Virus record (IMG/VR): IMGVR_UViG_3300014208_000024
Coordinates: 1-64,000 of that record
Direction: 5' to 3' (one strand)
DNA: 64,000 bases
DNA from: a virus
Taxonomy: Duplodnaviria; Caudoviricetes
The position numbers and the translations under genes were made by a program. A model generated the notes under the pieces. The model saw only the letters and a program-made list of their open reading frames with translations, ran no database searches and was not told the DNA's origin. Below are positions 9,969-51,713 of this stretch, in pieces (position 1 is the stretch's first letter; the number at the start of each line of letters is the position of its first letter).

Positions 9969-11396
9969 TTAACGATTTTTTTCTTTTAATTCTCTGGGCG
10001 CATTTCTTTCTTGATTTTTTCTTTTTTCTTCTTTACGCTCTTTAAATGTTGGTCCAGAATTTTTGTCTTTTATGTTTAAAATTGGAATTAAACGATCAAT
10101 AACATTGGCCGTTGGTTCATTTAATCTTTCTATTGTTTCAGAATCTTTATAAGCCCCTTTACATTCATCAAGAGTACCTTTACAAACTGATGTTGAAAAA
10201 ATTCCCTCCATTTCTTTTTTAAAATATTCTAAATCAAGTTTTTCTTTTGCCATAGAACGACTCATTTTTCTTCCAGCGCCATGACCACAACTATAATTAA
10301 ATTCTGGATTTGATTTTCCTTCACATATTAATGATCCATCTTTCATATTAAGTGCTACAATCATTTTTTCTCCAACGTATGAGCGTATGGCACCTTTGCG
10401 AATAATAAAGTCTTTAAAATCGATATAATTGTGTACTGTTTCAATAATTTCGATTGGTTTAATGCTTCCTAAAATAAGACATGATGTGTTTAACATCATT
10501 TTTCTATTAAATTCTGCATATTTTTGAGCAACTACCATATCAAGCAAATATTCAAAAGCATTTTCACCTTCCAGGAACTCCATGCCATTAATGTTAAAAT
10601 CAAAATCAAGTCCAAGTTCTTTTTTTGCAGATTCCGTTAGCTGTGGAATTGTAGTTTTATCTTTGGTGTTTTTATTTATAAATTCAATTTTTTCCTTTAA
10701 CTCCACATTTCTTTTATCACTTAAAAGTTTTTTTGCTTTATTTTGATGATAGTCACAAATACATTTACCAAAATTTCTAGATCCAGAGTGGATAGAAATC
10801 CATATGTCTTCCGTTTTTTCAGAAACTCCTAACTCGTAATAATGATTTCCTGATCCGAGTGAATTTATACTTAATTCAATGTGTTTTTGCTTCGCTTTAA
10901 TTTTACTGCACAATTCGCCAAAGCTCCTATAATCAAATTTTTTAAATTCATAATTTGTTTTAAATTTGTTGTTATAAGCTCTCGTAAAAATCAACATTTC
11001 ATTATTAAGTTCATCCCAAGGAAAATGTTTTCCAAATAAAAACTTTTCATTATTATTAATTTTAAATCCATTTTCATTAGCATTAATACCCATTGGAATA
11101 CTTTCTCTTATCTCTTTGTCAAATTTTTCAAAAGTCATATTTAACTTTTTTCCAATGTTTGCACATAAAATTCCGCATGAAATATCGACTCCGATTGTAT
11201 TGGGAATCAAATATTTACCAAGTGGCATTGTGAACCCAACAACAGAACCTTTTCCAGCATGAGCATCTACTTGCAATACAACATTGTTATCAAATGCAAT
11301 ATGATTTATCATATTGTTAACTTGATTAATACATTGTTCTTCAATTTCATCATTAGTAATTAATGCTCTTGTAAACTTTCCTTTTATTGTGTACAT
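9969..11396 (-). CDS. rtcB: RtcB RNA 3'-phosphate/5'-OH ligase
   Basis: DAHAG, GVDISCG, LGSGNHY, HSGSR, HNY, RKGA, HGAGR motifs. Confidence 0.95.
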   Translation of the reverse strand: MYTIKGKFTRALITNDEIEEQCINQVNNMINHIAFDNNVVLQVDAHAGKGSVVGFTMPLGKYLIPNTIGVDISCGILCANIGKKLNMTFEKFDKEIRESIPMGINANENGFKINNNEKFLFGKHFPWDELNNEMLIFTRAYNNKFKTNYEFKKFDYRSFGELCSKIKAKQKHIELSINSLGSGNHYYELGVSEKTEDIWISIHSGSRNFGKCICDYHQNKAKKLLSDKRNVELKEKIEFINKNTKDKTTIPQLTESAKKELGLDFDFNINGMEFLEGENAFEYLLDMVVAQKYAEFNRKMMLNTSCLILGSIKPIEIIETVHNYIDFKDFIIRKGAIRSYVGEKMIVALNMKDGSLICEGKSNPEFNYSCGHGAGRKMSRSMAKEKLDLEYFKKEMEGIFSTSVCKGTLDECKGAYKDSETIERLNEPTANVIDRLIPILNIKDKNSGPTFKERKEEKRKNQERNAPRELKEKNR

Positions 11397-11513: not shown

Positions 11514-12281
11514 ATGGAAAACAAAGAACTTTCTTATGTTATAGGATTATTTCAAACTGATGGAACATTAAATGAAGAAGATGGAAACAGAGGGAGATTT
11601 AAAATAGAACTAAACATTAAAGATGAAAATATAATTCATAAAATTTCTAAATTAATAAAATATAATTATAAAATTAGTACAAGGGATAGAATAACAAATT
11701 TTGGAAAAAGCAGTACTATTACAATTACAGTTTACAACATTAATTTTAGGAATTTTTTAAAAGAGCATGGAGTTCCATGTGGAAAAAAATCTGAAATAAT
11801 ATCTCCACCACTTCACATTAAAAATTTATCTATAGTTGATTATGTAAGAGGATTATATGATGGAGACGGTTCTCTTGGAATGACAGAGAAAAATAAACCA
11901 TTTATAAGCTTAACTACAAGTAGTGAAAATATAAAAAAATTTATTGTAAATTATATAAACGAAATTACTGGAACTCCAAAAAAGAATCCAAACAGAAACA
12001 AAAGAGATAATATATACAATATTAGTTTGTTTAATGAAGATGCAATAATATTTTCCAACCATTTGTATTATGATAATTGTTTGTGTATTAACAGAAAACT
12101 TGAAAAATCAATCGAAATGAAAAATTGGATTAGACCTTCTAATGTAAAAAAAAGAGAAAATAGAAAGTTTTGGACAAAAGAACAAGATGACTTCATTTTA
12201 TCAAACTCTATTGGAAATTCTATAAAAGAATTAAATAGGTCAAAACAAAGCATAGAAATGAGATTGTGGAGATTAAAATAA
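11514..12281 (+). CDS. Double-motif LAGLIDADG homing endonuclease
   Basis: VIGLFQTDG and YVRGLYDGDG. Confidence 0.88.
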   Translation: MENKELSYVIGLFQTDGTLNEEDGNRGRFKIELNIKDENIIHKISKLIKYNYKISTRDRITNFGKSSTITITVYNINFRNFLKEHGVPCGKKSEIISPPLHIKNLSIVDYVRGLYDGDGSLGMTEKNKPFISLTTSSENIKKFIVNYINEITGTPKKNPNRNKRDNIYNISLFNEDAIIFSNHLYYDNCLCINRKLEKSIEMKNWIRPSNVKKRENRKFWTKEQDDFILSNSIGNSIKELNRSKQSIEMRLWRLK

Positions 12282-18114: not shown

Positions 18115-18930
18115 TTGGGGAAAATAATTATGGAAAATGTAGAAAAAAAGATATGTACATGCTGTCAAGGGGAAAAACCTTTGAAACTTTTTCATAAAAA
18201 CAAAAGTAAAAAAGATGGTCATGATTATATTTGTAAATTTTGCAAAAAGATCAAAAGAAGGTTAAGAACAAAAAACAACAAAGAAAAAACTAAATTAAAA
18301 AGAAAATTGCAATATATCAAAAATAAAGAGAAACATAAAATTTATAGAGAAAACAACAAAGACATAATAAAAGAAAAAGATAAGATACGTAAAGAATTGA
18401 ACAAAAATGTTATAAGTGAAAAGAAAAAAGAAAATTATAAAAAAAATTCATATAAAATAAAACAATATCAAAAAGAATATTATAAAAAAAATAAAAACAA
18501 AGTAATTAATAGACAAAAAGCTTACATGGAAAGTCACAAAGAAGAAAGAAATATCAGACATAAAATTAGAATAAAAGAAGATTTTCTTTATAAATTAAAA
18601 TGTAACATAAGAGGCTTAATAAAAATTGCAATTAAATCTAAAAACTTTAAAAAAAATACAAAAACAGAACAAATACTTGGATGCTCTTTTTGTTTTTTTA
18701 AACAATATATAGAAAATCAATTCAATGAATGGCAAAATTGGAACAATTGGGGTATATTTAAAAAAAACGAGATAGCACAGACAAATAGATATTGGTCAAT
18801 TGACCATATTATTCCTTTATCTTCTGCAACAAAAGAAGAAGATGTTATAAGATTAAATCATTACACTAACCTGCAAGTTTTAGATAGTTATATTAACCAA
18901 TATATTAAAAAAAACAAATTGTTAAAATAA
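18115..18930 (+). CDS. HNH-like homing endonuclease
   Basis: WSIDHIIPLSSA...LNHYTNLQVL. Confidence 0.85.
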   Translation: MGKIIMENVEKKICTCCQGEKPLKLFHKNKSKKDGHDYICKFCKKIKRRLRTKNNKEKTKLKRKLQYIKNKEKHKIYRENNKDIIKEKDKIRKELNKNVISEKKKENYKKNSYKIKQYQKEYYKKNKNKVINRQKAYMESHKEERNIRHKIRIKEDFLYKLKCNIRGLIKIAIKSKNFKKNTKTEQILGCSFCFFKQYIENQFNEWQNWNNWGIFKKNEIAQTNRYWSIDHIIPLSSATKEEDVIRLNHYTNLQVLDSYINQYIKKNKLLK

Positions 18931-19272
18931 TTCTTCTTCTATTATTTTTTTAAGAAACCCAAGTGGCATGGCTCCAGAGTTGAAAAAACAATTTTTTCCT
19001 ACAGGGAAAAAAACTAATGTTGGAACTCCTTTTATTCTAAACATTGTGGTTAATTCAATCTCGTCTTCTATGTCTACTTTATAAAAATCAATCTTTTCTC
19101 CATATTTTATTTTTATTTCTTCTAATATGGGCATCAAAACTTTACAGGGAGAACACCATTTTGCTGTAAAATCTAAAATTATTGGTTTTTCACCTTCAAA
19201 TTTCCAATCTGGGCTGTTACTGAAGTTTGCAACTTTTTGTTCAAATACTTCTTTTGTTAAATGTTCTATCAT
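18922..19272 (-). CDS. Thioredoxin
   Basis: DFTAKWCSPC...GVPTL. Confidence 0.93.
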   Translation of the reverse strand: MIEHLTKEVFEQKVANFSNSPDWKFEGEKPIILDFTAKWCSPCKVLMPILEEIKIKYGEKIDFYKVDIEDEIELTTMFRIKGVPTLVFFPVGKNCFFNSGAMPLGFLKKIIEEELF

Positions 19273-19356
19273 ATCAATTTAATTTTATACAAATATACTA
19301 AATTGACACGGGAAAATAAACAAAAAACCCCACTTTTTTGTGAGGTTTCATGTAAT

Positions 19357-20604
19357 TTATACACTTTCTTCTTTTGAGACCCTTTCTATATCTTCTGCCC
19401 ACATAAAATATGCTTCATCTCCAGTTTTTTCATATTCTTCTTTTAATCTTCTTATTAATATTGGTAATTCTGAATTATGGAAATTTAGAACAATTTTGTT
19501 TTCTTTTTGTGAAAAATTAGATTTTGTAAATCCTTCAAGGTGACTATCTATTCCTTGATCTATAATATTTTTAAAAATTTTTATGTCTGAACTGCCAACT
19601 GGAATTGTTATTGGAAAAAATTCCCAATTCTCACTATGACTTATTTCGCCTTCTTTTAAAATTTTTAATTCTTTTTCAATTTTATTTTTTTTACTTTCCA
19701 GTAAGGTTTTTTTGTGAATCTTTAAAATTTCTTCTTGTATAAATTCCATTACTGGCTCACTTTGTTTTGACAAAAACATTGCATCTTCATCTTTTTCAAC
19801 TCTACCAGTTGGATAAAAACTTAAATCGTATGAACTCCAATTATCTTCTATAGTACCAGCTGCGTGCGCTGTTAAAACCCAAGGAAATTTAACAGGAATC
19901 CCCTCTTTGTTTTTAAAAATAAACTCTACTAAGTATTTCTTCCACTGAGGAGTTGTAGAATCAACAGTCATTCCGCCTGGATTATATTCTGCCTTCACAA
20001 TACTCATATCAATATTATGATCCTTAAAATGTTTCCATATTGCAGATATGTTTTCCCATCCAGTATCTTTATATCTTTGTCCGTGATCTTTTTGTTTATA
20101 AAGTTTGTATATGTAATTCATTGCAGACTTTGTGCTTCTACCATCAAGTGGATTTCCAGAGGCAAGTGCTAATCCTGAATCTGAAGTTTCTTCATCTATT
20201 CCACCCCACTCTTTAGCCTTAACTTTGTAATCATTTCTATAATCATCAAATTCTGGATCTGGACCATCATCAGCTTGTTTTTCAAATTCTTTTTCTAAAG
20301 CAGAATTAATTTCACTCCAATCACCACTTTCTTCATCAAAAAGAGCTTTTATTGCTTCTTCTCCTTCAATAACACTTCCGTCATCACTTATTGCTCTGTC
20401 TATAGAAGTATTTGTTCCACCATGAAAGCCAACTGAGTCATCTGGCGCCTCAACTTCCATTGAAGCTTCTATTTTATAATGTTTTCCATCTGCAGAATTA
20501 ACAAAATCAATTGTTGCGTTTAAAACATAATCTCTACTTCTTCTAAAATTAGATTCTTCAATTAGTTTTTCAACTTCTTTTGTAACAAACTCTTGTAATT
20601 TCAT
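19357..20604 (-). CDS. Hypothetical acidic protein, probably virion-associated
   Basis: MKLQEFVTKEVEKLIEE N-terminus; internal module shared with 39835-40992. Confidence 0.75.
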   Translation of the reverse strand: MKLQEFVTKEVEKLIEESNFRRSRDYVLNATIDFVNSADGKHYKIEASMEVEAPDDSVGFHGGTNTSIDRAISDDGSVIEGEEAIKALFDEESGDWSEINSALEKEFEKQADDGPDPEFDDYRNDYKVKAKEWGGIDEETSDSGLALASGNPLDGRSTKSAMNYIYKLYKQKDHGQRYKDTGWENISAIWKHFKDHNIDMSIVKAEYNPGGMTVDSTTPQWKKYLVEFIFKNKEGIPVKFPWVLTAHAAGTIEDNWSSYDLSFYPTGRVEKDEDAMFLSKQSEPVMEFIQEEILKIHKKTLLESKKNKIEKELKILKEGEISHSENWEFFPITIPVGSSDIKIFKNIIDQGIDSHLEGFTKSNFSQKENKIVLNFHNSELPILIRRLKEEYEKTGDEAYFMWAEDIERVSKEESV

Positions 20605-23802: not shown

Positions 23803-23807
23803 ATTTG

Positions 23808-23891
23808 AGCACATGGAGGGATTTGAACCCCCGACTCTTTCGAGATAACAGTTTTGCAGACTGATGGCTTAGACCACTCACCCACATGTGC
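23808..23891 (-). tRNA. tRNA-Cys(GCA) with long variable arm
   Basis: GCACATG/CATGTGC, U73, loop CTGCAAA, CTC-GAAA-GAG V arm. Confidence 0.82.
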
Positions 23892-23990: not shown

Positions 23991-24131
23991 AATTTAGGGG
24001 AAAAGCAAAAAGAGTGTTGAAGATTTCTCTTCGGAGGATTTGAACCTCATTCCCTTTCGGGAGATTGATTTTTGGTCAATTGCGTAAACCAGTTTCTCCA
24101 CGATGTAACTCTTTTAATGGCCACCTAAATT
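23991..24131 (-). ncRNA. Cassette A: permuted Leu-like tRNA body with acceptor stem capped by a short purine loop
   Basis: AATTTAGG/CCTAAATT and AAAAGAGT/ACTCTTTT flank stems, TGGCCA, TACATC^G; cargo 24019-24101. Confidence 0.75.
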
Positions 24132-45408: not shown

Positions 45409-46311
45409 TTATCTTATAATATTTAATTCCTTTTCAGTCCATACCTCAAATGGTATGTTATTTTTTTTACAATATTTTTTAACAGCTTTAATTTTTTCTT
45501 TATTATTCCATCTATTTAACAATCTTTTTGGCTTAACTTCAACTATTTTTTTTAGTTCTTCTTTGTAAAAAATTTCAAAATCTATAATTGTACTTCTTTT
45601 TCCATTCCTATATTTTATATTGTATGGCTCGTAATTATAATAAAGAACATTATCATCTTTTTCTAATATTTCCATAGCTATTAACTCATAAGAACTTCTG
45701 TATTTTATTTCTTTTTTATTTTTATTACTATAATAAATTCCACCTTTATATTTTTTATGTGATGGAGAAATCCCAAACATTCCATTGCTTTTTCCGCTAT
45801 TTTTTCCTTTTATAGAATTTGATATTTTCTTTTTCACATCCTCGCTTTGTGATGCACATTTTTTAGAACAATAAATGTTTTCATGCTTATTAACTTCTTT
45901 TCCACAAAATTTACATCTTGGTTTTTCTTTTATATTTTTTTTCTTACCTGCTTCAATACGCTCTATTAAAAATCCAAACGCACCATTTTCTCTAATGCGT
46001 TTTTTTATAGAATCTCCTATGTTTTTTTTCGTTTTTTCTGATTGAATTCTTTTGTTTGCACAACTTCTAGAACAAAACATAGAATATTTTTTTTTCTCAA
46101 AATCTGTTTTTTTTAAAATAATCTCATATTTTTTTCCACATCTCAAACATCCAAACTCATACTCTAATCTTTCTATTTTTCTACTATTAGATGCTTTTTG
46201 TATCATGTTTTTTTTGTTTGGGTTTTTTTTACAATTAATTATATGACCACCAAGTTGTTGTTGCTTGTCATATTTTATTAATTGTCCACAATATTTACAT
46301 TTTTTTTCCAT
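45409..46311 (-). CDS. Zinc-finger/NUMOD plus TnsA-like homing endonuclease
   Basis: KYRSSYE...IIDFEI...VEVKP. Confidence 0.8.
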   Translation of the reverse strand: MEKKCKYCGQLIKYDKQQQLGGHIINCKKNPNKKNMIQKASNSRKIERLEYEFGCLRCGKKYEIILKKTDFEKKKYSMFCSRSCANKRIQSEKTKKNIGDSIKKRIRENGAFGFLIERIEAGKKKNIKEKPRCKFCGKEVNKHENIYCSKKCASQSEDVKKKISNSIKGKNSGKSNGMFGISPSHKKYKGGIYYSNKNKKEIKYRSSYELIAMEILEKDDNVLYYNYEPYNIKYRNGKRSTIIDFEIFYKEELKKIVEVKPKRLLNRWNNKEKIKAVKKYCKKNNIPFEVWTEKELNIIR

Positions 46312-46365
46312 TTTTTTGTATTTATTTTACTATAAATATCAGCAAAAAATAAAAATTGAACTCTG

Positions 46366-46437
46366 AGCGGTATACTGGATTTAAACCAGCGACCTTCACA
46401 TTGGCAATGTGACATTCTATCACTGAACTAATACCGC
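46366..46437 (-). tRNA. tRNA-Gly(GCC)
   Basis: GCGGTAT/ATACCGC, U73, TCACA-TTGCCAA-TGTGA. Confidence 0.83.
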
Positions 46438-46440
46438 ATA

Positions 46441-46607
46441 AAATTAGGGAAATTTCGAACTAAGCATTTTTCTTTTTCTGCCCCATTTAACCACTCTGGA
46501 ACCCCCCCGAATTACTCCTTATTTGTCGAGGGGGATGGATTCGAACCACCGAAGGCTTACGCCAGCAGATTCCTTATCGAAGTAACTTAATTTGTTACCA
46601 CTAATTT
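46441..46607 (-). tRNA. Cassette E: circularly permuted type II (Tyr-like body) tRNA with AGG anticodon
   Basis: 3' half 46526-46578, 5' half 46479-46509; join GCA|GA restores GCAGA/TCTGC; loop TAAGGAA; 16-nt linker. Confidence 0.78.
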
Positions 46608-47387
46608 ATATTTTTTATTCCAATTTTCTATTTTGTTTTTTAAATCATCTAATGAAATAGAACATTTTTTATTTTTACTTGAATTATTTGAATGAACCAT
46701 TAATTTGCAATTTGCTGGATGAGAAATAATATTTGAATCAATTTTTTGTTTAAAACCTTCCGAAATTGAAAACATGTGATCTCTACTAATTCCATTTAAG
46801 TTATTCCCTTTATTCTTTGCACAATACCATCCAAATTTTTTAATCAACTCAAAGTCAAATTCTTCTACGAAATCTTTTAGATTAAAATTAAATCGACACT
46901 CTGATTTATATATATTAAATTCAGTCATCTTTTTTTTATCAAAAATTTTTCTACAATTTATCCCACAAAATTTATTTTTTCTTTTTTTAAATGGCAAAAT
47001 AGCATTACACTCTAAACAAAAATTTGGATTTTCATAATATTTGTCAATACCATTTTTTTTAATATTAGCATTTTTAATGTTTTCTTTTGCTTTGTCACTA
47101 AAAACAACTTTTCTGCCAGTATTTTTCTTATTGTTAAATGATGTAGAACAACTTAAAGAACAAAAAGTATTAAACCTTTTTTCGTATGAAATTAAATTAC
47201 CACAATGTTTACATTTTTTAATATCAATTTTAGGTTTATGAAATTCATTATAACAAGTTAAGGAACAAAAATGTTTTCTTCCCATTTTTTCACTTCTTTT
47301 AAATTCTGTTTTTGTTTTTTCAAACTCATTTTTACAATTTTCGCAAATTATTAAAATTGTTTTTCTATTATTCTTAAAAATTTTCAT
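46587..47387 (-). CDS. Zinc-finger plus HNH-like homing endonuclease
   Basis: FCSLxC repeats; GISRDHMFSI...HPANC; start re-chosen at MKIFKNN. Confidence 0.78.
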   Translation of the reverse strand: MKIFKNNRKTILIICENCKNEFEKTKTEFKRSEKMGRKHFCSLTCYNEFHKPKIDIKKCKHCGNLISYEKRFNTFCSLSCSTSFNNKKNTGRKVVFSDKAKENIKNANIKKNGIDKYYENPNFCLECNAILPFKKRKNKFCGINCRKIFDKKKMTEFNIYKSECRFNFNLKDFVEEFDFELIKKFGWYCAKNKGNNLNGISRDHMFSISEGFKQKIDSNIISHPANCKLMVHSNNSSKNKKCSISLDDLKNKIENWNKKYKLVVTN

Positions 47388-47459
47388 ACTTTTATTTTTC
47401 TTATAAATATTAAAAAAAAATAAAAGTGGAGTTTTTTTGAGTCGAACTTGTATGCTTAG

Positions 47460-47533
47460 TGGAAGTGAAGGGTTTCGAACCCTCATACCTTATGCTTGCA
47501 AAGCATCTGCTCAGCCAATTGAGCTACACCCCC
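47460..47533 (-). tRNA. tRNA-Ala(TGC)
   Basis: GGGGGTG/CACTTCC with G3:U70; loop TTTGCAA. Confidence 0.9.
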
Positions 47534-47615
47534 AGATTTCCTATTAACTCTTCCATTCACCCTAAAGTGGGTGGGTTTACAGAACTTCGGAAAGACTTTC
47601 GTCTTGTTCAATTAG

Positions 47616-47689
<74 letters not shown>

Positions 47690-47691
47690 AA

Positions 47692-47770
47692 ATGATAGTC
47701 TTTCCCATCTGTCACCCTTAGATGTGATTATTAAAAATAATCAGTGTATTGCGGGTTGTCTACACCATCC
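47692..47770 (-). ncRNA. Candidate pseudoknotted small RNA
   Basis: GATGGT/ACTATC, TGATTATT/AATAATCA, CATCT-AAGGGTGAC-AGATG whose loop GGGT can pair with upstream ACCC. Confidence 0.4.
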
Positions 47771-47778
47771 TTTTTCAA

Positions 47779-47929
47779 AAAACAGGGAAAATTTATAAGA
47801 GTTTGTTTTACGTGCTCTAACCGACTGAGCTATCCCGCCATTTTCCTTTTATTTGTGGCGGGAGCAGGATTCGAACCTACGGCGACGGCATTATGATTGC
47901 GAAGTAACTCTCATTGTTGCCACTGTTTT
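47779..47929 (-). tRNA. Cassette G: circularly permuted tRNA-Met(CAT)
   Basis: 3' half 47856-47900, 5' half 47811-47839; join CG|GCA; GGCGGGA/TCCCGCC; 16-nt linker. Confidence 0.87.
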
Positions 47930-47944
47930 ATCTTAAATATGTTA

Positions 47945-48098
47945 AAAATTAGGGAATTCTTCGCAGAATCTGTTTTTAAGCGCTCTAACCAACTGAGCTA
48001 TCCCCGCATTATTTTTTATTTAGAGCGGGGAACAGGATTCGAACCTATGGCCTCTGTCTTGGAAGGACGATGAAATTCTACATTTTGCCACTAATTTT
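47945..48098 (-). tRNA. Cassette F: circularly permuted tRNA-Gly(TCC)
   Basis: 3' half 48024-48068, 5' half 47979-48007; join CT|GTC restores CTGTC/GACAG; U73; 16-nt linker. Confidence 0.88.
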
Positions 48099-48102
48099 AT
48101 TG

Positions 48103-48177
48103 TCGGGGTAACTGGATTTGAACCAGCGAACACTTGCATCCCATGCAAGCCCATATAGCCATCTGTGGAACACCCCG
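48103..48177 (-). tRNA. tRNA-Pro(GGG)
   Basis: CGGGGTG/TACCCCG, CTTGC-ATGGGAT-GCAAG. Confidence 0.82.
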
Positions 48178-48245
48178 TAAGGTGCGGAATTTAAAGTCGT
48201 GGAGTCACAATGCTCAACGGCACAAACCTTCCGCTGTTTGTTTTG

Positions 48246-48320
48246 TCTGGGTAAAGGGATTCGAACCCCCGAACACGTGCTTCCAAAGCACGCCCGTATA
48301 GCCATCTGCGGAACACCCAG
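48246..48320 (-). tRNA. tRNA-Pro(TGG)
   Basis: CTGGGTG/TACCCAG, CGTGC-TTTGGAA-GCACG. Confidence 0.87.
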
Positions 48321-48426
48321 AAATAAAAGAGAGAACATCTTATGAGATGCTGTCCTAACCATCACCGTTCACGTTTCAGGTCAGTAACTCAAGTCTTGTG
48401 AACCTCCCAAGACCCTTTTCTTTTTG

Positions 48427-48501
48427 TCGGGTAAGCAGGATTCGAACCTGCGAACATCTGTCTCCGAAACAGACCCATATAGCCATCTGTGGAACTACCC
48501 G
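48427..48501 (-). tRNA. tRNA-Pro(CGG)
   Basis: CGGGTAG/TTACCCG, TCTGT-TTCGGAG-ACAGA. Confidence 0.87.
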
Positions 48502-48521
48502 AATTTTAATTTCATTTTCAC

Positions 48522-48610
48522 TGGTAGCGGGTGAGGGACTCGAACCCCCGCTTCCCTTTTGGAGAAGTCCAGCTTATGAGACTGGCAAGATACCACTTCT
48601 CTAACCCGCA
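48522..48610 (-). tRNA. tRNA-Met(CAT) with 1:72 mismatch, long V arm and encoded CCA
   Basis: TGCGGGT/ACCCGCT, CCAGT-CTCATAA-GCTGG. Confidence 0.8.
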
Positions 48611-48617
48611 ATATTTG

Positions 48618-48699
48618 TCGAAAGGGAGGGAGTTGAACCCCCATAGCCGAAGGCGACGGTTTTACAGACCGCTGATTTAGCCGATTTACCATCCTTTCG
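48618..48699 (-). tRNA. tRNA-Tyr(GTA)
   Basis: CGAAAGG/CCTTTCG, GCGGT-CTGTAAA-ACCGT, long V arm. Confidence 0.88.
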
Positions 48700-48703
48700 A
48701 AAA

Positions 48704-48799
48704 CTTTGGCTCATGGGTCAGTTACTATCCCATTTTTATTTAACGCTATTCCAAGGCGACTAACTTGTGTCCAACAACGCATCCACTATGCAGCCAAAG
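48704..48799 (-). ncRNA. Candidate structured RNA
   Basis: CTTTGGCT/AGCCAAAG closure, GCAT-AGTGG-ATGC, ATGGG/CCCAT hairpin whose loop TAACT can pair with AGTTA. Confidence 0.42.
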
Positions 48800-48817
48800 G
48801 GAGATTTTTAAAATTTG

Positions 48818-48902
48818 TGAGAGTAGAAGGATTCGAACCTCCAACGCCCCGAAGGGCAACAGGGTTACAGCCTGTCAGACATCCTGGTTGTCTAATACTC
48901 CC
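48818..48902 (-). tRNA. tRNA-Tyr(GTA)
   Basis: GGGAGTA/TACTCTC, ACAGG-CTGTAAC-CCTGT. Confidence 0.88.
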
Positions 48903-48906
48903 ATTT

Positions 48907-49058
48907 AAATCAGGGTAAAAGCGAATAAGCTTTTTTGTTTTTGAATTTTTCCCCATAGTTTAAAATTTAATTGGTGGGGAAAGCAGGATTCGAACCTACA
49001 ATGTTTAGTTTTACAGACTATTTTCTTCCGAAGTAACTCATTCTGTTGCCACTGATTT
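48907..49058 (-). tRNA. Cassette H: circularly permuted tRNA-Tyr(GTA)-like RNA with minimal D-arm
   Basis: 3' part 48972-49029 with encoded CCA, 5' part 48943-48954; GGGGAAA/TTTCCCC; flanks AAATCAG/CTGATTT and GAATGAGT/GCTTATTC. Confidence 0.78.
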
Positions 49059-49059
49059 G

Positions 49060-49131
49060 TGGAGGATAACGATACCGATTCGTTGGTCTGTTGCTTGCAA
49101 AACAACCGCTTTACCATTAAGCTAAGCCCCC
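49060..49131 (-). tRNA. tRNA-Ala(TGC) with non-canonical T-loop
   Basis: GGGGGCT/ATCCTCC (G3:U70), loop TTTGCAA, T-arm AACGA-ATCGGTA-TCGTT. Confidence 0.72.
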
Positions 49132-49811
49132 AATTTATAATAAGAGAAAATGTGATTTTTATGAGATTTATTAACACCTCTACAAACCTTAGAAACACAA
49201 TTCCAATCAAACCCATCTTCTATAACTTGCCTTCCAAAATTATAAATTTTTATCAAATTATTTTCTAAATTATAACAAAAAACTTTTTTACAATTCTTAC
49301 TATTTATTCCACTATTTTTTTCTTTTGTTTTTTCACTCCATTTTAATCCAACTCTTTTAGCAGACATTTTTTCTTTACTTTCTTTAGAATGATTTTTTCC
49401 ATAAAATCCATTTTTATCTCCAAGACAACTTGTTTTTCTTGTTTTTGACATCTTTATTTTTGATTCTTCCGAGTGTTTGAAAATTCCTTTTTTACCTTTG
49501 TTCCAAGGAACAACACTGAATGAACCATCTCCACCATTTGTCATATTTGTAAGCTCAAACCCCCAAGTTTTAATTTGAGAAATCCAATATTTTTCCCAAA
49601 AATCACAACTTAACTCATCAGTTTCTTCTATGATAAAAAGTTCTGGTAACAATCCATTTTTTTTTAATTTTTTAACCCAAGCAGTTTTTTTTGTATTTTT
49701 ACTTTCATTTAAATGGTCTCTAAATCTTCTTTCTACCCTATATGTTTTTCCAACATATTTTATACTTTTATTTCTTGGGTCAGAAAGTAAATAAATATAA
49801 ACTTTTTTCAT
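49122..49811 (-). CDS. GIY-YIG homing endonuclease with NUMOD3/NUMOD1 repeats
   Basis: VYIYLL...KYVGKT...RFRDH; HSEESKIKMS repeats. Confidence 0.9.
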   Translation of the reverse strand: MKKVYIYLLSDPRNKSIKYVGKTYRVERRFRDHLNESKNTKKTAWVKKLKKNGLLPELFIIEETDELSCDFWEKYWISQIKTWGFELTNMTNGGDGSFSVVPWNKGKKGIFKHSEESKIKMSKTRKTSCLGDKNGFYGKNHSKESKEKMSAKRVGLKWSEKTKEKNSGINSKNCKKVFCYNLENNLIKIYNFGRQVIEDGFDWNCVSKVCRGVNKSHKNHIFSYYKLGA

Positions 49812-49846
49812 ACTTTTTTATTATAAATATAATAAAAAAAAATGAA

Positions 49847-50206
49847 TTATGGATTAATTAATGGATTTATTTTTTGTTTTGTTAATTTATATACCCTATT
49901 ATTAAAATCTTCTAATAAAGATTTGGGTATTTTTATTTTTTTATCTTCAAATTGTTTAAGTATTTCATACTTAGAAAAACACCCTTCAACAATACCCTCT
50001 GACCACATATTAATATGCAACCCCCAAGATTTTTTTCCCATAATTACAGTTTTCAAAATGTTTGGGTGACAACTTTTAAGATTATTAATTTTTATTTCAC
50101 CATTTTCAAATTTTCTGAATCCAAATTTTCCATCATCAGAATCCAGATCAAATTCCACTTTAACATCTGAACCGCAGAAAGTAAGTATTCCACATCTATA
50201 AGACAT
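49847..50206 (-). CDS. Hypothetical protein
   Basis: ORF. Confidence 0.65.
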   Translation of the reverse strand: MSYRCGILTFCGSDVKVEFDLDSDDGKFGFRKFENGEIKINNLKSCHPNILKTVIMGKKSWGLHINMWSEGIVEGCFSKYEILKQFEDKKIKIPKSLLEDFNNRVYKLTKQKINPLINP

Positions 50207-50437
50207 TAAAAAAAACGTGAAGATTTCGTTAAACTTTTCAGAATACTTTTGTAATCTTTTATGATTTCTTGTACCAGAGATTTGTTTTTTTTCTTCAATT
50301 TTTCTTAACCTCTCTTTAATTGATTCGCTTTTCGCATGGCTGTTCCCTCCAAAGTTTTAATTATTAATATGATAAAGTTGATTTTGCTCAATATCATTGT
50401 TAGCTTTATCGTTCAAAAACTATGATATTATATTGTA

Positions 50438-50508
50438 AATCAGGGAATAGTTACCGAGGGAGTTTTTTGATTTGCAGTCGAAGTATCCCTACTGATTGCC
50501 ACTGACTT
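50438..50508 (-). ncRNA. Cassette I: minimal cassette whose cargo is only a Cys anticodon stem-loop
   Basis: AGTCAG/CTGATT, AGGGA/TCCCT, TGGCAA, TACTTC^G, cargo GA-CTGCAAA-TC, TATTCC. Confidence 0.72.
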
Positions 50509-50510
50509 TG

Positions 50511-50583
50511 AGCGGGTAAAGAGGTTCAAACTCTCGACTTTCAGATTGGAAATCTGACGCTCTATCAGCTGAGCTATACCCGC
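50511..50583 (-). tRNA. tRNA-Gly(TCC)
   Basis: GCGGGTA/TACCCGC, U73, TCAGA-TTTCCAA-TCTGA. Confidence 0.83.
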
Positions 50584-50688
50584 ATTATTTTAGTTTATAA
50601 AAAATAATATAATTTAAATTTTTTTTCACAATTTGTTAAAGAAAATAGATTTTCTAAAATTTTGTGATATTTATATGAAAAATATTAT

Positions 50689-51369
50689 ATGACACCACTT
50701 TATACACAAGAAGAATTTGACAACGCTAAAGGTTGCGACAAATTGCCATGTAAATGTAAATATTGTAAAGAAACATTCTTTAGATATAAGTATATAATTA
50801 AAGCAGCATTAAACCCAAAAAACAAGCAAACTAATGATTATTGTTCAAGAAATTGTCAATATCAATCTCAGTTTAAGCATGAAACTATAAGATGTGACAA
50901 TTGCAATATTGAAATTAAAAAATTAATTTCTACTACAAAAAGACATAAAAATCATTTTTGTTCGCACTCATGTTCTACTAAATATTTTAACGCTCACAAA
51001 ACAACTGGAATTAGACGATCTAAATTAGAAATATGGCTTGAATCACAACTCACTTTTCTTTATCCAAGTCTTGAAATTCATTATAATAAAAAGGATGCCA
51101 TTGGATCAGAATTAGATATATATGTACCCTCTTTAAAAATTGCATTCGAATTAAATGGAATATTCCATTATGAGCCAATTTATGGTAATAATAAATTAGA
51201 TCAAATAAAAAATAATGATTCAAGAAAATATAAATCTTGTATTGATTTAAACATATCTTTGTGTATAATAGATTCATCTCAATTAAAATATTTTAAAGAG
51301 AAAAATTGTAAAAAATATTTAGATATTATTATTAATATTATAAACAACACAATGAATACTGGACAATAA
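50689..51369 (+). CDS. Zinc-finger plus PD-(D/E)XK/Vsr-like homing endonuclease
   Basis: ELDIYVPSLKIAFELNGIFHY. Confidence 0.8.
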   Translation: MTPLYTQEEFDNAKGCDKLPCKCKYCKETFFRYKYIIKAALNPKNKQTNDYCSRNCQYQSQFKHETIRCDNCNIEIKKLISTTKRHKNHFCSHSCSTKYFNAHKTTGIRRSKLEIWLESQLTFLYPSLEIHYNKKDAIGSELDIYVPSLKIAFELNGIFHYEPIYGNNKLDQIKNNDSRKYKSCIDLNISLCIIDSSQLKYFKEKNCKKYLDIIINIINNTMNTGQ

Positions 51370-51426
51370 TAACCAGCATTCATTATGTGTTTTAAATTCA
51401 CCAACATGTCAAAGACCATTATACTG

Positions 51427-51498
51427 CGGAATGTGTGGGATTCGAACCCCTCCTTCGCCGTGACGGGGCGATACTACTACCATTATACGACACACTCC
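51427..51498 (-). tRNA. tRNA-Asp(GTC), weak T-stem
   Basis: GGAGTGT/ACATTCC, G73, TCGCC-CCGTCAC-GGCGA. Confidence 0.75.
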
Positions 51499-51530
51499 AA
51501 TTTTCATTTATTTATAAAGAACGTATTAAA

Positions 51531-51599: not shown

Positions 51600-51713
51600 T
51601 TAAGGTTTTGAGTTAAACATACCCGTCCCACATCCATAATCAGCATCCGCTGCACATGGATAACCGCCCATTGGGGAAGTTTCTGGTTGACGATATGTAA
51701 AATTTTGTTTCAC
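51600..51713 (-). CDS. Leader peptide (GTG start) MKQNFTYRQPETSPMGGYPCAADADYGCGTGMFNSKP
   Basis: 4 Pro, 5 Gly, 3 Ala, 3 Tyr, 2 Asp, 2 internal Met, 2 Cys. Confidence 0.8.
   Translation of the reverse strand: MKQNFTYRQPETSPMGGYPCAADADYGCGTGMFNSKP

Follow-up and report, generated by a model that had tools for sequence, protein, structure and literature searches.

Permuted tRNA-Gly and tRNA-Met units of a large phage genome as candidate tRNA-identity-specific Y RNAs

We analyzed the first 64 kb (the window, positions 1 to 64,000) of IMGVR_UViG_3300014208_000024, the complete (CheckV) genome of a phage of the class Caudoviricetes, which consists of a single contig of 372,283 bp with ∼28% G+C. 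ARAGORN predicts 46 tRNA genes in this phage; those in the window are all on the minus strand and grouped by amino acid. The window also has suppressor tRNAs, GOLLD RNA and an RNA like that of the signal recognition particle (SRP). Between canonical tRNAs, at 47779–48098, lie two adjacent units in which the 3' half of a tRNA precedes the 5' half: a Gly(UCC) unit at 47945–48098 and a Met(CAU) unit at 47779–47929, both on the minus strand. These units are the subject of this report, as candidate RNAs of the type called YrlA (Y RNA-like A, Rfam RF02553; PMC4201824; 10.1101/312249). Among the runs listed, the sequence occurs in two of DNA, both of them groundwater metagenomes, and in none of RNA. 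The Gly/Met arrangement is also found on a 25-kb contig of a DNA run, identical over 47659–48400, and that run may be the source sample.

The two units share one order along the minus strand: a leader strand, tRNA nucleotides (nt) 29–73, a 16-nt linker, tRNA nt 1–28 and a trailer strand. Minimum-energy folds of both contain a T arm, an acceptor stem closed by the linker, a D arm and, formed by the flanks, a long helix in two parts (P1 and P2), here termed the Y stem. The break falls exactly at nt 28|29 in each case and splits the anticodon stem. Pairs 27:43 and 28:42 bridge the halves, and nt 29–31 pair with nt 39–41 to form a small hairpin with a 7-nt loop. When the halves are fused at 28|29, ARAGORN calls tRNA-Gly(tcc) at up to 120% and tRNA-Met(cat) at up to 115% of its default threshold. 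Both units are also matched by R1, a covariance model made from 29 cassettes of other phages and containing no sequence of this genome. The Met unit scores 83.2 bits (E 7e-19, 47773–47934) and the Gly unit 73.1 bits (E 3.5e-16, 47940–48102), in both cases over model positions 1–149. Each whole unit, a Y-type stem closing a circularly permuted tRNA body, is supported by folds, ARAGORN, R1 and duplex energy.

The Gly unit begins with its 5' Y-stem strand (48069–48098), which consists of P1 (AAAAUUAG.GG), the motif GUGGCAA, P2 and then UUUCAUC, as delimited by sequence, duplex energy and repeat. Next come tRNA nt 29–73 (48024–48068, from ARAGORN on the joined halves), made up of a 3-bp hairpin with loop CUUCCAA (anticodon UCC), nt 42–43, the variable loop, the T arm, the acceptor 3' strand UCCCCGC and U73. 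An A/U-rich linker of 16 nt (48008–48023) starts with C74 and leads to tRNA nt 1–28 (47979–48007), with the acceptor 5' strand GCGGGGA, the D arm and nt 26–28. The 3' Y-stem strand (47945–47978; same lines of evidence) runs through UAAAAACAG, P2' and UUCCCUAAUUUU, and a GCGA-capped hairpin is an alternative fold. The Met unit follows the same design. Its 5' strand (47901–47929) comprises AAAACAG, GUGGCAA, P2 (AUGAGAGUU) and ACUUC, and its 3' strand (47779–47810) UAAAACA, P2' (AACUCUUAU) and UUUUCCCUGUUUU, both from sequence and repeats. Between them are tRNA nt 29–73 (47856–47900; hairpin GCA-AUCAUAA-UGC, CG, T arm, UCCCGCC and A73), a 16-nt linker that likewise starts with C74 (47840–47855) and tRNA nt 1–28 (47811–47839; GGCGGGA, D arm, A26, C27 and G28).

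The original prediction held that two permuted cassettes lie back to back here, that each pairs only internally, and that a single linear tRNA with an intron between neighboring halves is thereby ruled out. The repeats it named are all in place: AAAACAG/CTGTTTT at 47779–47785 and 47923–47929, AAAATTAG/CTAATTTT at 47945–47952 and 48091–48098, TCCCGCC(A)/(T)GGCGGGA at 47833–47840 and 47856–47863, and TCCCCGC/GCGGGGA at 48001–48007 and 48025–48031. Internal pairing is borne out by flank duplex energies of –15.1 kcal/mol for Gly/Gly and –16.3 kcal/mol for Met/Met, compared with –5.9 and –5.4 kcal/mol for the crosses. Among nine units of this genome, the cognate flank was the best partner in 9/9 rows. 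The cross reading did worse in all tests. The linear alternative would join the Gly 5' half (48007–47979) to the Met 3' half (47900–47856) across an intron of ∼80 nt, and the Rfam tRNA model does score 31.2 bits over 47856–48007, with a large insertion. Yet this cross form makes only five of the seven acceptor pairs, is the first combination that ARAGORN drops (the call is lost at 110% of the default threshold), has flanks that pair within units instead, and leaves the Gly 3' half and the Met 5' half without partners. Because cognate joins and cognate flanks beat the crosses, the topological argument against an intron holds, and we put the chance of such a linear tRNA close to nil. The prediction was right about the topology, two self-contained tRNA-shaped units, but missed the nature of the flanks, which form a Y-RNA-like stem module. 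Separately, the Met junction (CUUCGCA, 47898–47904) is perfectly complementary over 7 nt to the GCGA-capped hairpin of the Gly trailer (47959–47965); this may be chance or a contact between neighboring units.

The flanks recur elsewhere. Their 5' motif ([A/G]GUGGC, ∼10 bases, then GUUAC[U/A]UCG) is present 7 times in the window versus 0.02 expected, and so, like the R1 matches, goes beyond chance. The genome contains at least 11 copies of the stem module, [A/G]GUGGC..GUUACUUCG pairing with ..UUCCCY; in these the 3' partner is always complementary to its own 5' flank and ends in UUCCCY. One copy (84882–85021) is directly upstream of the open reading frame (ORF) for Rsr (84802–83258), the phage's TROVE (Ro60/Rsr) protein. 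R1 finds, all at full length, the Asn, Met, Gly, His-like, E, Rsr-adjacent, Tyr and Cys mini units.

The contents of the stem vary. Complete permuted tRNA bodies occur in the Gly, Met and Asn units, and others are partial or different; all those described next are on the minus strand. The Asn(GUU) unit (34662–34808; R1, 97.5 bits) has a complete permuted body with G73 and a 16-nt linker. A His-like unit (34923–35132; R1, 59.7 bits) has a G-1:C73 acceptor, the loop CUAUGAU on a 5-bp anticodon stem, a break at 26|27 and a 73-nt linker. Unit E (46434–46612; R1, 43 bits) has a permuted body and a 16-nt linker, and is devoid of an anticodon hairpin. In the Tyr(GUA) unit (48907–49056; R1, 30.2 bits), a hairpin, a T arm and an acceptor with encoded A73-CCA are found, with no D arm. 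A Leu-like unit (23992–24130; flank duplex) contains D, anticodon-like, long variable and T arms, its acceptor being closed by GAAA. Two units of the genome are minis, consisting of the stem and an anticodon-like hairpin only; one of them, at 50438–50505 (R1, 22.8 bits), has a Cys(GCA)-like loop. In one further case (33605–33734; ARAGORN and flank duplex), the Y stem surrounds a suppressor tRNA(UUA) in normal order. This is the phage's only TAA suppressor, and it has an encoded ACCA end, a C1-A72 mismatch and a leader that pairs with the trailer. Normal-order tRNAs within Y stems are also found in two other phages (L033 and L085).

Several siblings, then, share these flanks while being incapable of serving as tRNAs: a hairpin-only unit, a unit without a D arm and a unit whose acceptor is closed by a tetraloop. 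Because such non-tRNA units carry the same flanks, it is the flanks and not the tRNA body that define the family. For the same reason, permuted genes maturing into decoding tRNAs become less likely, and ordinary permuted tRNA genes are probably not what the two units represent.

We scanned IMG/VR for relatives. Most matches of a first scan, based on the motif, were due to chance, and the chance-matched contigs were reused as 39 controls. True members were nevertheless found in several large phages, in four of which a copy lies directly upstream of a TROVE gene. A second scan (motif plus T loop) returned at least 119 viral stretches, and 129 cassettes were parsed from the matches listed. Among these listed matches, TROVE is present in 43/50 cassette contigs versus 1/39 control contigs, and in 24/25 cassette contigs that are ≥90% complete. 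The family also occurs in cultured phages. Xanthomonas phage Olaya (MW802488.1, 43.7 kb) has five tandem Y-like RNAs (∼18919–19554) upstream of its TROVE gene, in an unannotated gap, with loops including GAA, CUC (with a tRNA-Glu-type D arm) and GUU. Three of the Olaya copies score 124, 89 and 66 bits with R1, compared with 50, 39.6 and 25.8 bits with Rfam YrlA. Eight close relatives of this phage have a near-identical TROVE match. No clear family member was seen in Vibrio phage phiKT1024, in the gap upstream of TROVE.

This distribution bears on the idea that the flank helices are processing or insulating structures independent of Rsr (such as cleavage sites for RNase III or RNase E, or insulators of folding), with the permuted bodies as by-products of tandem duplication. 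The location of the units between canonical tRNAs, in a region (46300–51500) where no terminator was found, would suit such a role, as would the stem copy that flanks the normal-order suppressor tRNA. Against it, the module adjoins a TROVE gene in five genomes, the TROVE association is as strong as just described, and the module is also found in small phages with few or no tRNA genes nearby. We regard this explanation as improbable.

Covariation supports the proposed structure. In the 29-cassette alignment with a specified structure, paired cells amounted to 92.3%, versus 66.7% in shuffled alignments and 33–44% when partners were slid. The two junction pairs are formed in 29/29 sequences, with double changes. 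RNAalifold, applied to a 32-sequence alignment, recovered the T, acceptor and D helices only; the anticodon hairpin, the junction pairs and P2 were supplied by hand and afterwards supported by the covariation test. No single alignment register was possible for P1, which was tested by duplex energy instead. These results also speak to the notion that the units are decaying, functionless remnants of rearranged tRNA genes, for which one could cite the incomplete siblings. Helices kept intact by compensatory changes across 29 phages, a conserved loop grammar (see below) and full-length model matches already disfavor decay, and we give it a very small chance.

For comparison with known RNAs, we scanned the region against Rfam at permissive settings. 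YrlA was the only non-tRNA family with a notable match. In the same scan, no ribozyme or intron family was matched, and a self-cleaving or self-splicing reading was dropped for that reason. The units and YrlA share a long stem in which the two ends of the RNA pair, and a Ro60/Rsr gene as partner. Both have a tRNA-like domain ordered as T arm, closed acceptor-like stem and D arm, as judged from folds, a full-length YrlA alignment and covariation. YrlA has YUAY before a small hairpin; the corresponding element is UUAC in the Met unit and, invariantly, in 29/29 sequences from other phages, and UUUC in the Gly unit. YrlA of Mycobacterium smegmatis, the only YrlA known to have a 7-bp acceptor, is cut by RNase P. 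In vivo, CA is added to its encoded C, and the two CCA-tailed pieces are retained on Rsr (PMC4201824). The Gly and Met units likewise have a 7-bp acceptor and N73-C74; they also have an anticodon loop and a cognate identity set, neither of which is reported for the M. smegmatis RNA. Unlike YrlA, the units have many paralogues in this genome, with differing anticodons and mostly inside tRNA operons far from rsr. Since R1 matches are strong while Rfam YrlA scores stay low, the family is a large, unannotated and divergent relative of YrlA.

The small hairpin sets the family apart. In published YrlA, the corresponding 'V' hairpin is poorly conserved, and S. Typhimurium YrlA is stated to have no anticodon loop. 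The phage RNAs, in contrast, have a 7-nt loop of tRNA grammar on a split 5-bp stem. In 56 fixed-register cassettes, T33, a purine at 37 and A38 are each present in 55. Moreover, G37 accompanies G36 in 13 of 14 loops, compared with 0 of 41 loops lacking G36 (Fisher p ∼1e-11), and the same coupling is seen in 598 canonical tRNAs from the same loci. About 30 anticodon triplets are represented, the commonest being GUU (10–11 times) and UGU (7 times). A further line of evidence comes from a low-depth variant contig of a DNA run (181 nt, corresponding to window positions 47809–47991), which differs from the phage at 20 positions. Its Met loop reads CAG/G37 in place of CAU/A37, a joint change of positions 36 and 37 that would fit a Leu(CAG)-type unit at the Met spot in a related phage. 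Because of the U33/R37/A38 and G36-G37 grammar, together with the paired 36/37 change in the variant, we read the hairpin as a true anticodon stem-loop, which the Y stem separates from the two lower pairs. Anticodons also show a mild tendency to match those of neighboring tRNAs (7/30 versus 2.8 expected, p 0.014).

Acceptor ends of the family fall into two classes. The acceptor loop is 1–12 nt in most members and 14–21 nt in the others, and the 16-nt linkers of the Gly and Met units place them in the long class. In long-linker cassettes, C74 follows N73 in 19 of 22 and CCA is present in 5 of 22; for comparison, the 3' ends of all 46 ARAGORN tRNAs of the phage are N73-C. The Gly unit contains an identity set of G1:C72, C2:G71, G3:C70, U73, C35 and C36, which is also kept in the Gly cassette of another phage, although the remaining stems of that cassette are different. 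Under the rules for bacterial synthetases, the identity elements of the Gly unit and of the Met unit (A73) fit their anticodons. The discriminator of the Asn unit, G73, fits as well. Given the 7-bp acceptor, the cognate discriminator, C74 and the 16-nt A/U linker, an RNase P cut at G1 followed by CCA completion is probable.

Several features speak for genuine circularly permuted tRNA genes that give working tRNA-Gly(UCC) and tRNA-Met(CAU). By that route, the flank helix would be cut at 28|29, RtcB would circularize the RNA, and RNase P, 3' trimming and CCA addition would open the linker. When joined at 28|29, the halves are canonical tRNAs, and their identity elements, U73 with G1-C2-G3 (Gly), A73 (Met) and G73 (Asn), match the anticodons; the linker starts with C74, as does the 3' end of every phage tRNA gene; and the loops keep the G36-G37 rule, which is relevant to decoding. 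The phage encodes RtcB RNA ligase, a possible partner enzyme (9969–11396, minus strand; Pfam RtcB, 181.7 bits), and a PolyA_pol/CCA-type enzyme, of the CCA-adding type. The units are also within tRNA operons that are preceded by leader peptides in which these amino acids are abundant. Several observations oppose this route, however. No bulge-helix-bulge with 3-nt bulges and 4-bp spacing could be drawn by eye, the unpaired stretches being 5–9 nt. A domain search of the phage proteins found no tRNA splicing endonuclease domain (PF01974), and a canonical tRNA-Gly(UCC) gene and several canonical tRNA-Met genes are already present in the phage. A loop of 1–12 nt closes the acceptor of most family members, which could not open it, and siblings with the same flanks have no tRNA body. 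Finally, the family tracks TROVE and not RtcB, although RtcB co-occurrence was not surveyed. Permuted genes of this kind are possible for the long-linker class but less economical, and we consider them distinctly unlikely.

In permuted tRNA genes of algae and archaea, leader and trailer form a bulge-helix-bulge, the substrate of the splicing endonuclease, and maturation yields the working tRNAs of the cell. Such genes were reportedly described by Soma et al. in 2007 and Chan et al. in 2011, from Cyanidioschyzon merolae and other algae and from the archaeon Thermofilum pendens. The phage units share with them a 3' half upstream of the 5' half, a short linker, leader/trailer pairing and joined halves that are canonical. 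They differ in that no bulge-helix-bulge and no endonuclease gene was found, canonical copies exist, and the helix is a Ro60-linked module. Permutation is also known from tmRNA: in alpha-proteobacteria and some cyanobacteria, a circularly permuted ssrA gene gives two base-paired pieces that are still aminoacylated. The partner of tmRNA is SmpB, its RNA family and function are different, and it has no anticodon loop. A last comparison is with the b7a-tRNA of Band-7/RtcB operons (Burroughs and Aravind 2016, as cited in 10.1101/312249). This RNA also resembles a tRNA and is predicted to act together with RtcB in RNA repair or conflict; unlike the phage units, it has another protein partner and normal tRNA order.

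We favor reading both units as YrlA-type Y RNAs of the phage, bound by Ro60 and specific for tRNA identities, and assign this reading a probability of roughly two in three. It builds on what the computations give directly: the layout, the self-closure, the family membership, the tight TROVE link and the anticodon-loop grammar. The function of the units, including Rsr binding and processing, is proposed by analogy. Each unit would be one segment of a transcript that also covers the neighboring tRNA operon. The ends of the segment pair to form a stem, where the phage Rsr is predicted to bind. This stem would enclose the permuted tRNA body, which starts with the anticodon hairpin and the T arm, continues through the acceptor 3' strand, the linker and the acceptor 5' strand, and finishes with the D arm. 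The body would fold into the tRNA L shape, and the Rsr-bound stem would emerge from the anticodon stem at nt 28|29. By analogy with M. smegmatis YrlA, RNase P would probably cut at G1, with trimming and completion to CCA to follow. The product would be a two-piece, possibly aminoacylatable tRNA surrogate held on Rsr. Such surrogates would not be ribosomal decoders; their most likely role is in a tRNA-centered conflict with the host, each unit standing in for one tRNA species. They could be decoys or sensors for tRNA-targeting defense enzymes, or adaptors that bring Rsr, and perhaps RtcB, to a tRNA species.

Identity-specific surrogates held by Rsr are favored because of precedent. Phage tRNAs are known counter-measures to tRNA-cleaving defenses. 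One such defense, AriB of PARIS, targets the tRNAs for Lys (UUU), for Thr (UGU) and for Asn (GUU). In addition, gp130 of phage Bas63, a Ro60-like protein encoded upstream of tRNA genes, counters the Ppl defense system, and the authors of that study guessed that the adjacent 'tRNA genes' could encode Y RNAs (PMC11482910).

A number of observations weigh against Ro60-bound Y RNAs of YrlA type. The Rfam gathering score for YrlA, 69, was not reached by the Met (36.7 bits), Gly (30.8 bits) or Asn (44.9 bits) unit, nor by any of 14 related loci. The proposed Ro60 contact of YrlA is the motif GNCGAAN0-1G near the 5' end (PMC4201824). The two units instead have GUGGCAA; at this place, GGCGAAG, GGCGUAG or GUGCGCAG is found in GC-rich relatives. 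The YrlA RNAs of Chen et al. 2014 (PMC4201824) are encoded at most ∼4 kb from the Ro60 gene and on the same strand, and the Gly and Met units, ∼36 kb from rsr, are not within that distance. The Rsr-upstream sibling does adjoin rsr, as copies do in genomes G001, G002, G004 and G005 and in phage Olaya. In the wider family, anticodon and discriminator agree weakly (12/31 versus 8.3 expected, p 0.065). With the Gly identity set, the units retain tRNA features beyond what binding to Ro60 would seem to require, and this would fit real tRNA function too. And a decoy or sensor role is something that we can only infer.

With regard to tRNA function, long-linker units such as Gly and Met might be two-piece tRNAs that RNase P opens, that receive a CCA tail and that the cognate synthetase charges on Ro60, as identity-specific sentinels or decoys, or else spares that RtcB completes into decoders once the Y stem is gone. 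We view this as unlikely. If true, it would mean that YrlA-type Y RNAs derive from, and still work as, specific tRNAs; the targets of sentinels or decoys would be enzymes of the host directed against anticodon loops or charged tRNAs.

The role of the tRNA-like domain of bacterial Y RNAs has been a question since 2014, and the published view is of a domain without an anticodon loop. What is new here is a phage Y-type family that keeps a true anticodon loop, in ∼30 anticodon flavors, to which this phage adds cognate acceptor identity and tRNA-type 3' ends. These features point to partners that read tRNA identity, such as synthetases, modification enzymes or anticodon nucleases. YrlA has been proposed to originate from dimeric tRNA transcripts, and the units resemble a surviving intermediate of that path. 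Because the family occurs in cultured phages such as Xanthomonas phage Olaya, the question is directly testable. The annotation of phage tRNA regions is also incomplete, because tRNA finders and Rfam miss Y-type units.

Other features of the window deserve mention. In the operon of the two units, the leader peptide has a high content of Pro, Met, Gly, Tyr, Cys, Ala and Asp, and the Y units of this operon show Cys, Tyr, Gly and Met loops. A leader of 37 codons, two of them Cys codons, lies ahead of the largest tRNA operon (51600–51713, minus strand). No canonical tRNA-Cys was found in that operon, where the sole Cys element found is the mini Y unit with its GCA loop; the only tRNA-Cys gene found is in the Leu cluster. 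Between tRNA operons are a full-length GOLLD RNA (41517–41900, minus strand, 226.6 bits) and the SRP-like RNA (42370–42453, minus strand, 42.3 bits versus an Rfam threshold of 40). Two ORFs are of homing-endonuclease type: a LAGLIDADG ORF (11514–12281, plus strand) that adjoins rtcB, and a TnsA-like ORF with NUMOD3 (45409–46311, minus strand) within the tRNA array. A tRNA-Ala(UGC) with G3-U70 and an unusual T arm (49060–49131, minus strand) scores 50.8 bits with Rfam and is not called by ARAGORN. Lastly, three minus-strand tRNAs have long variable arms despite belonging to anticodon classes that normally have none: Cys GCA (23807–23891, 85 nt), Thr UGU (33139–33225, 87 nt) and Met CAU (48522–48610, 89 nt).

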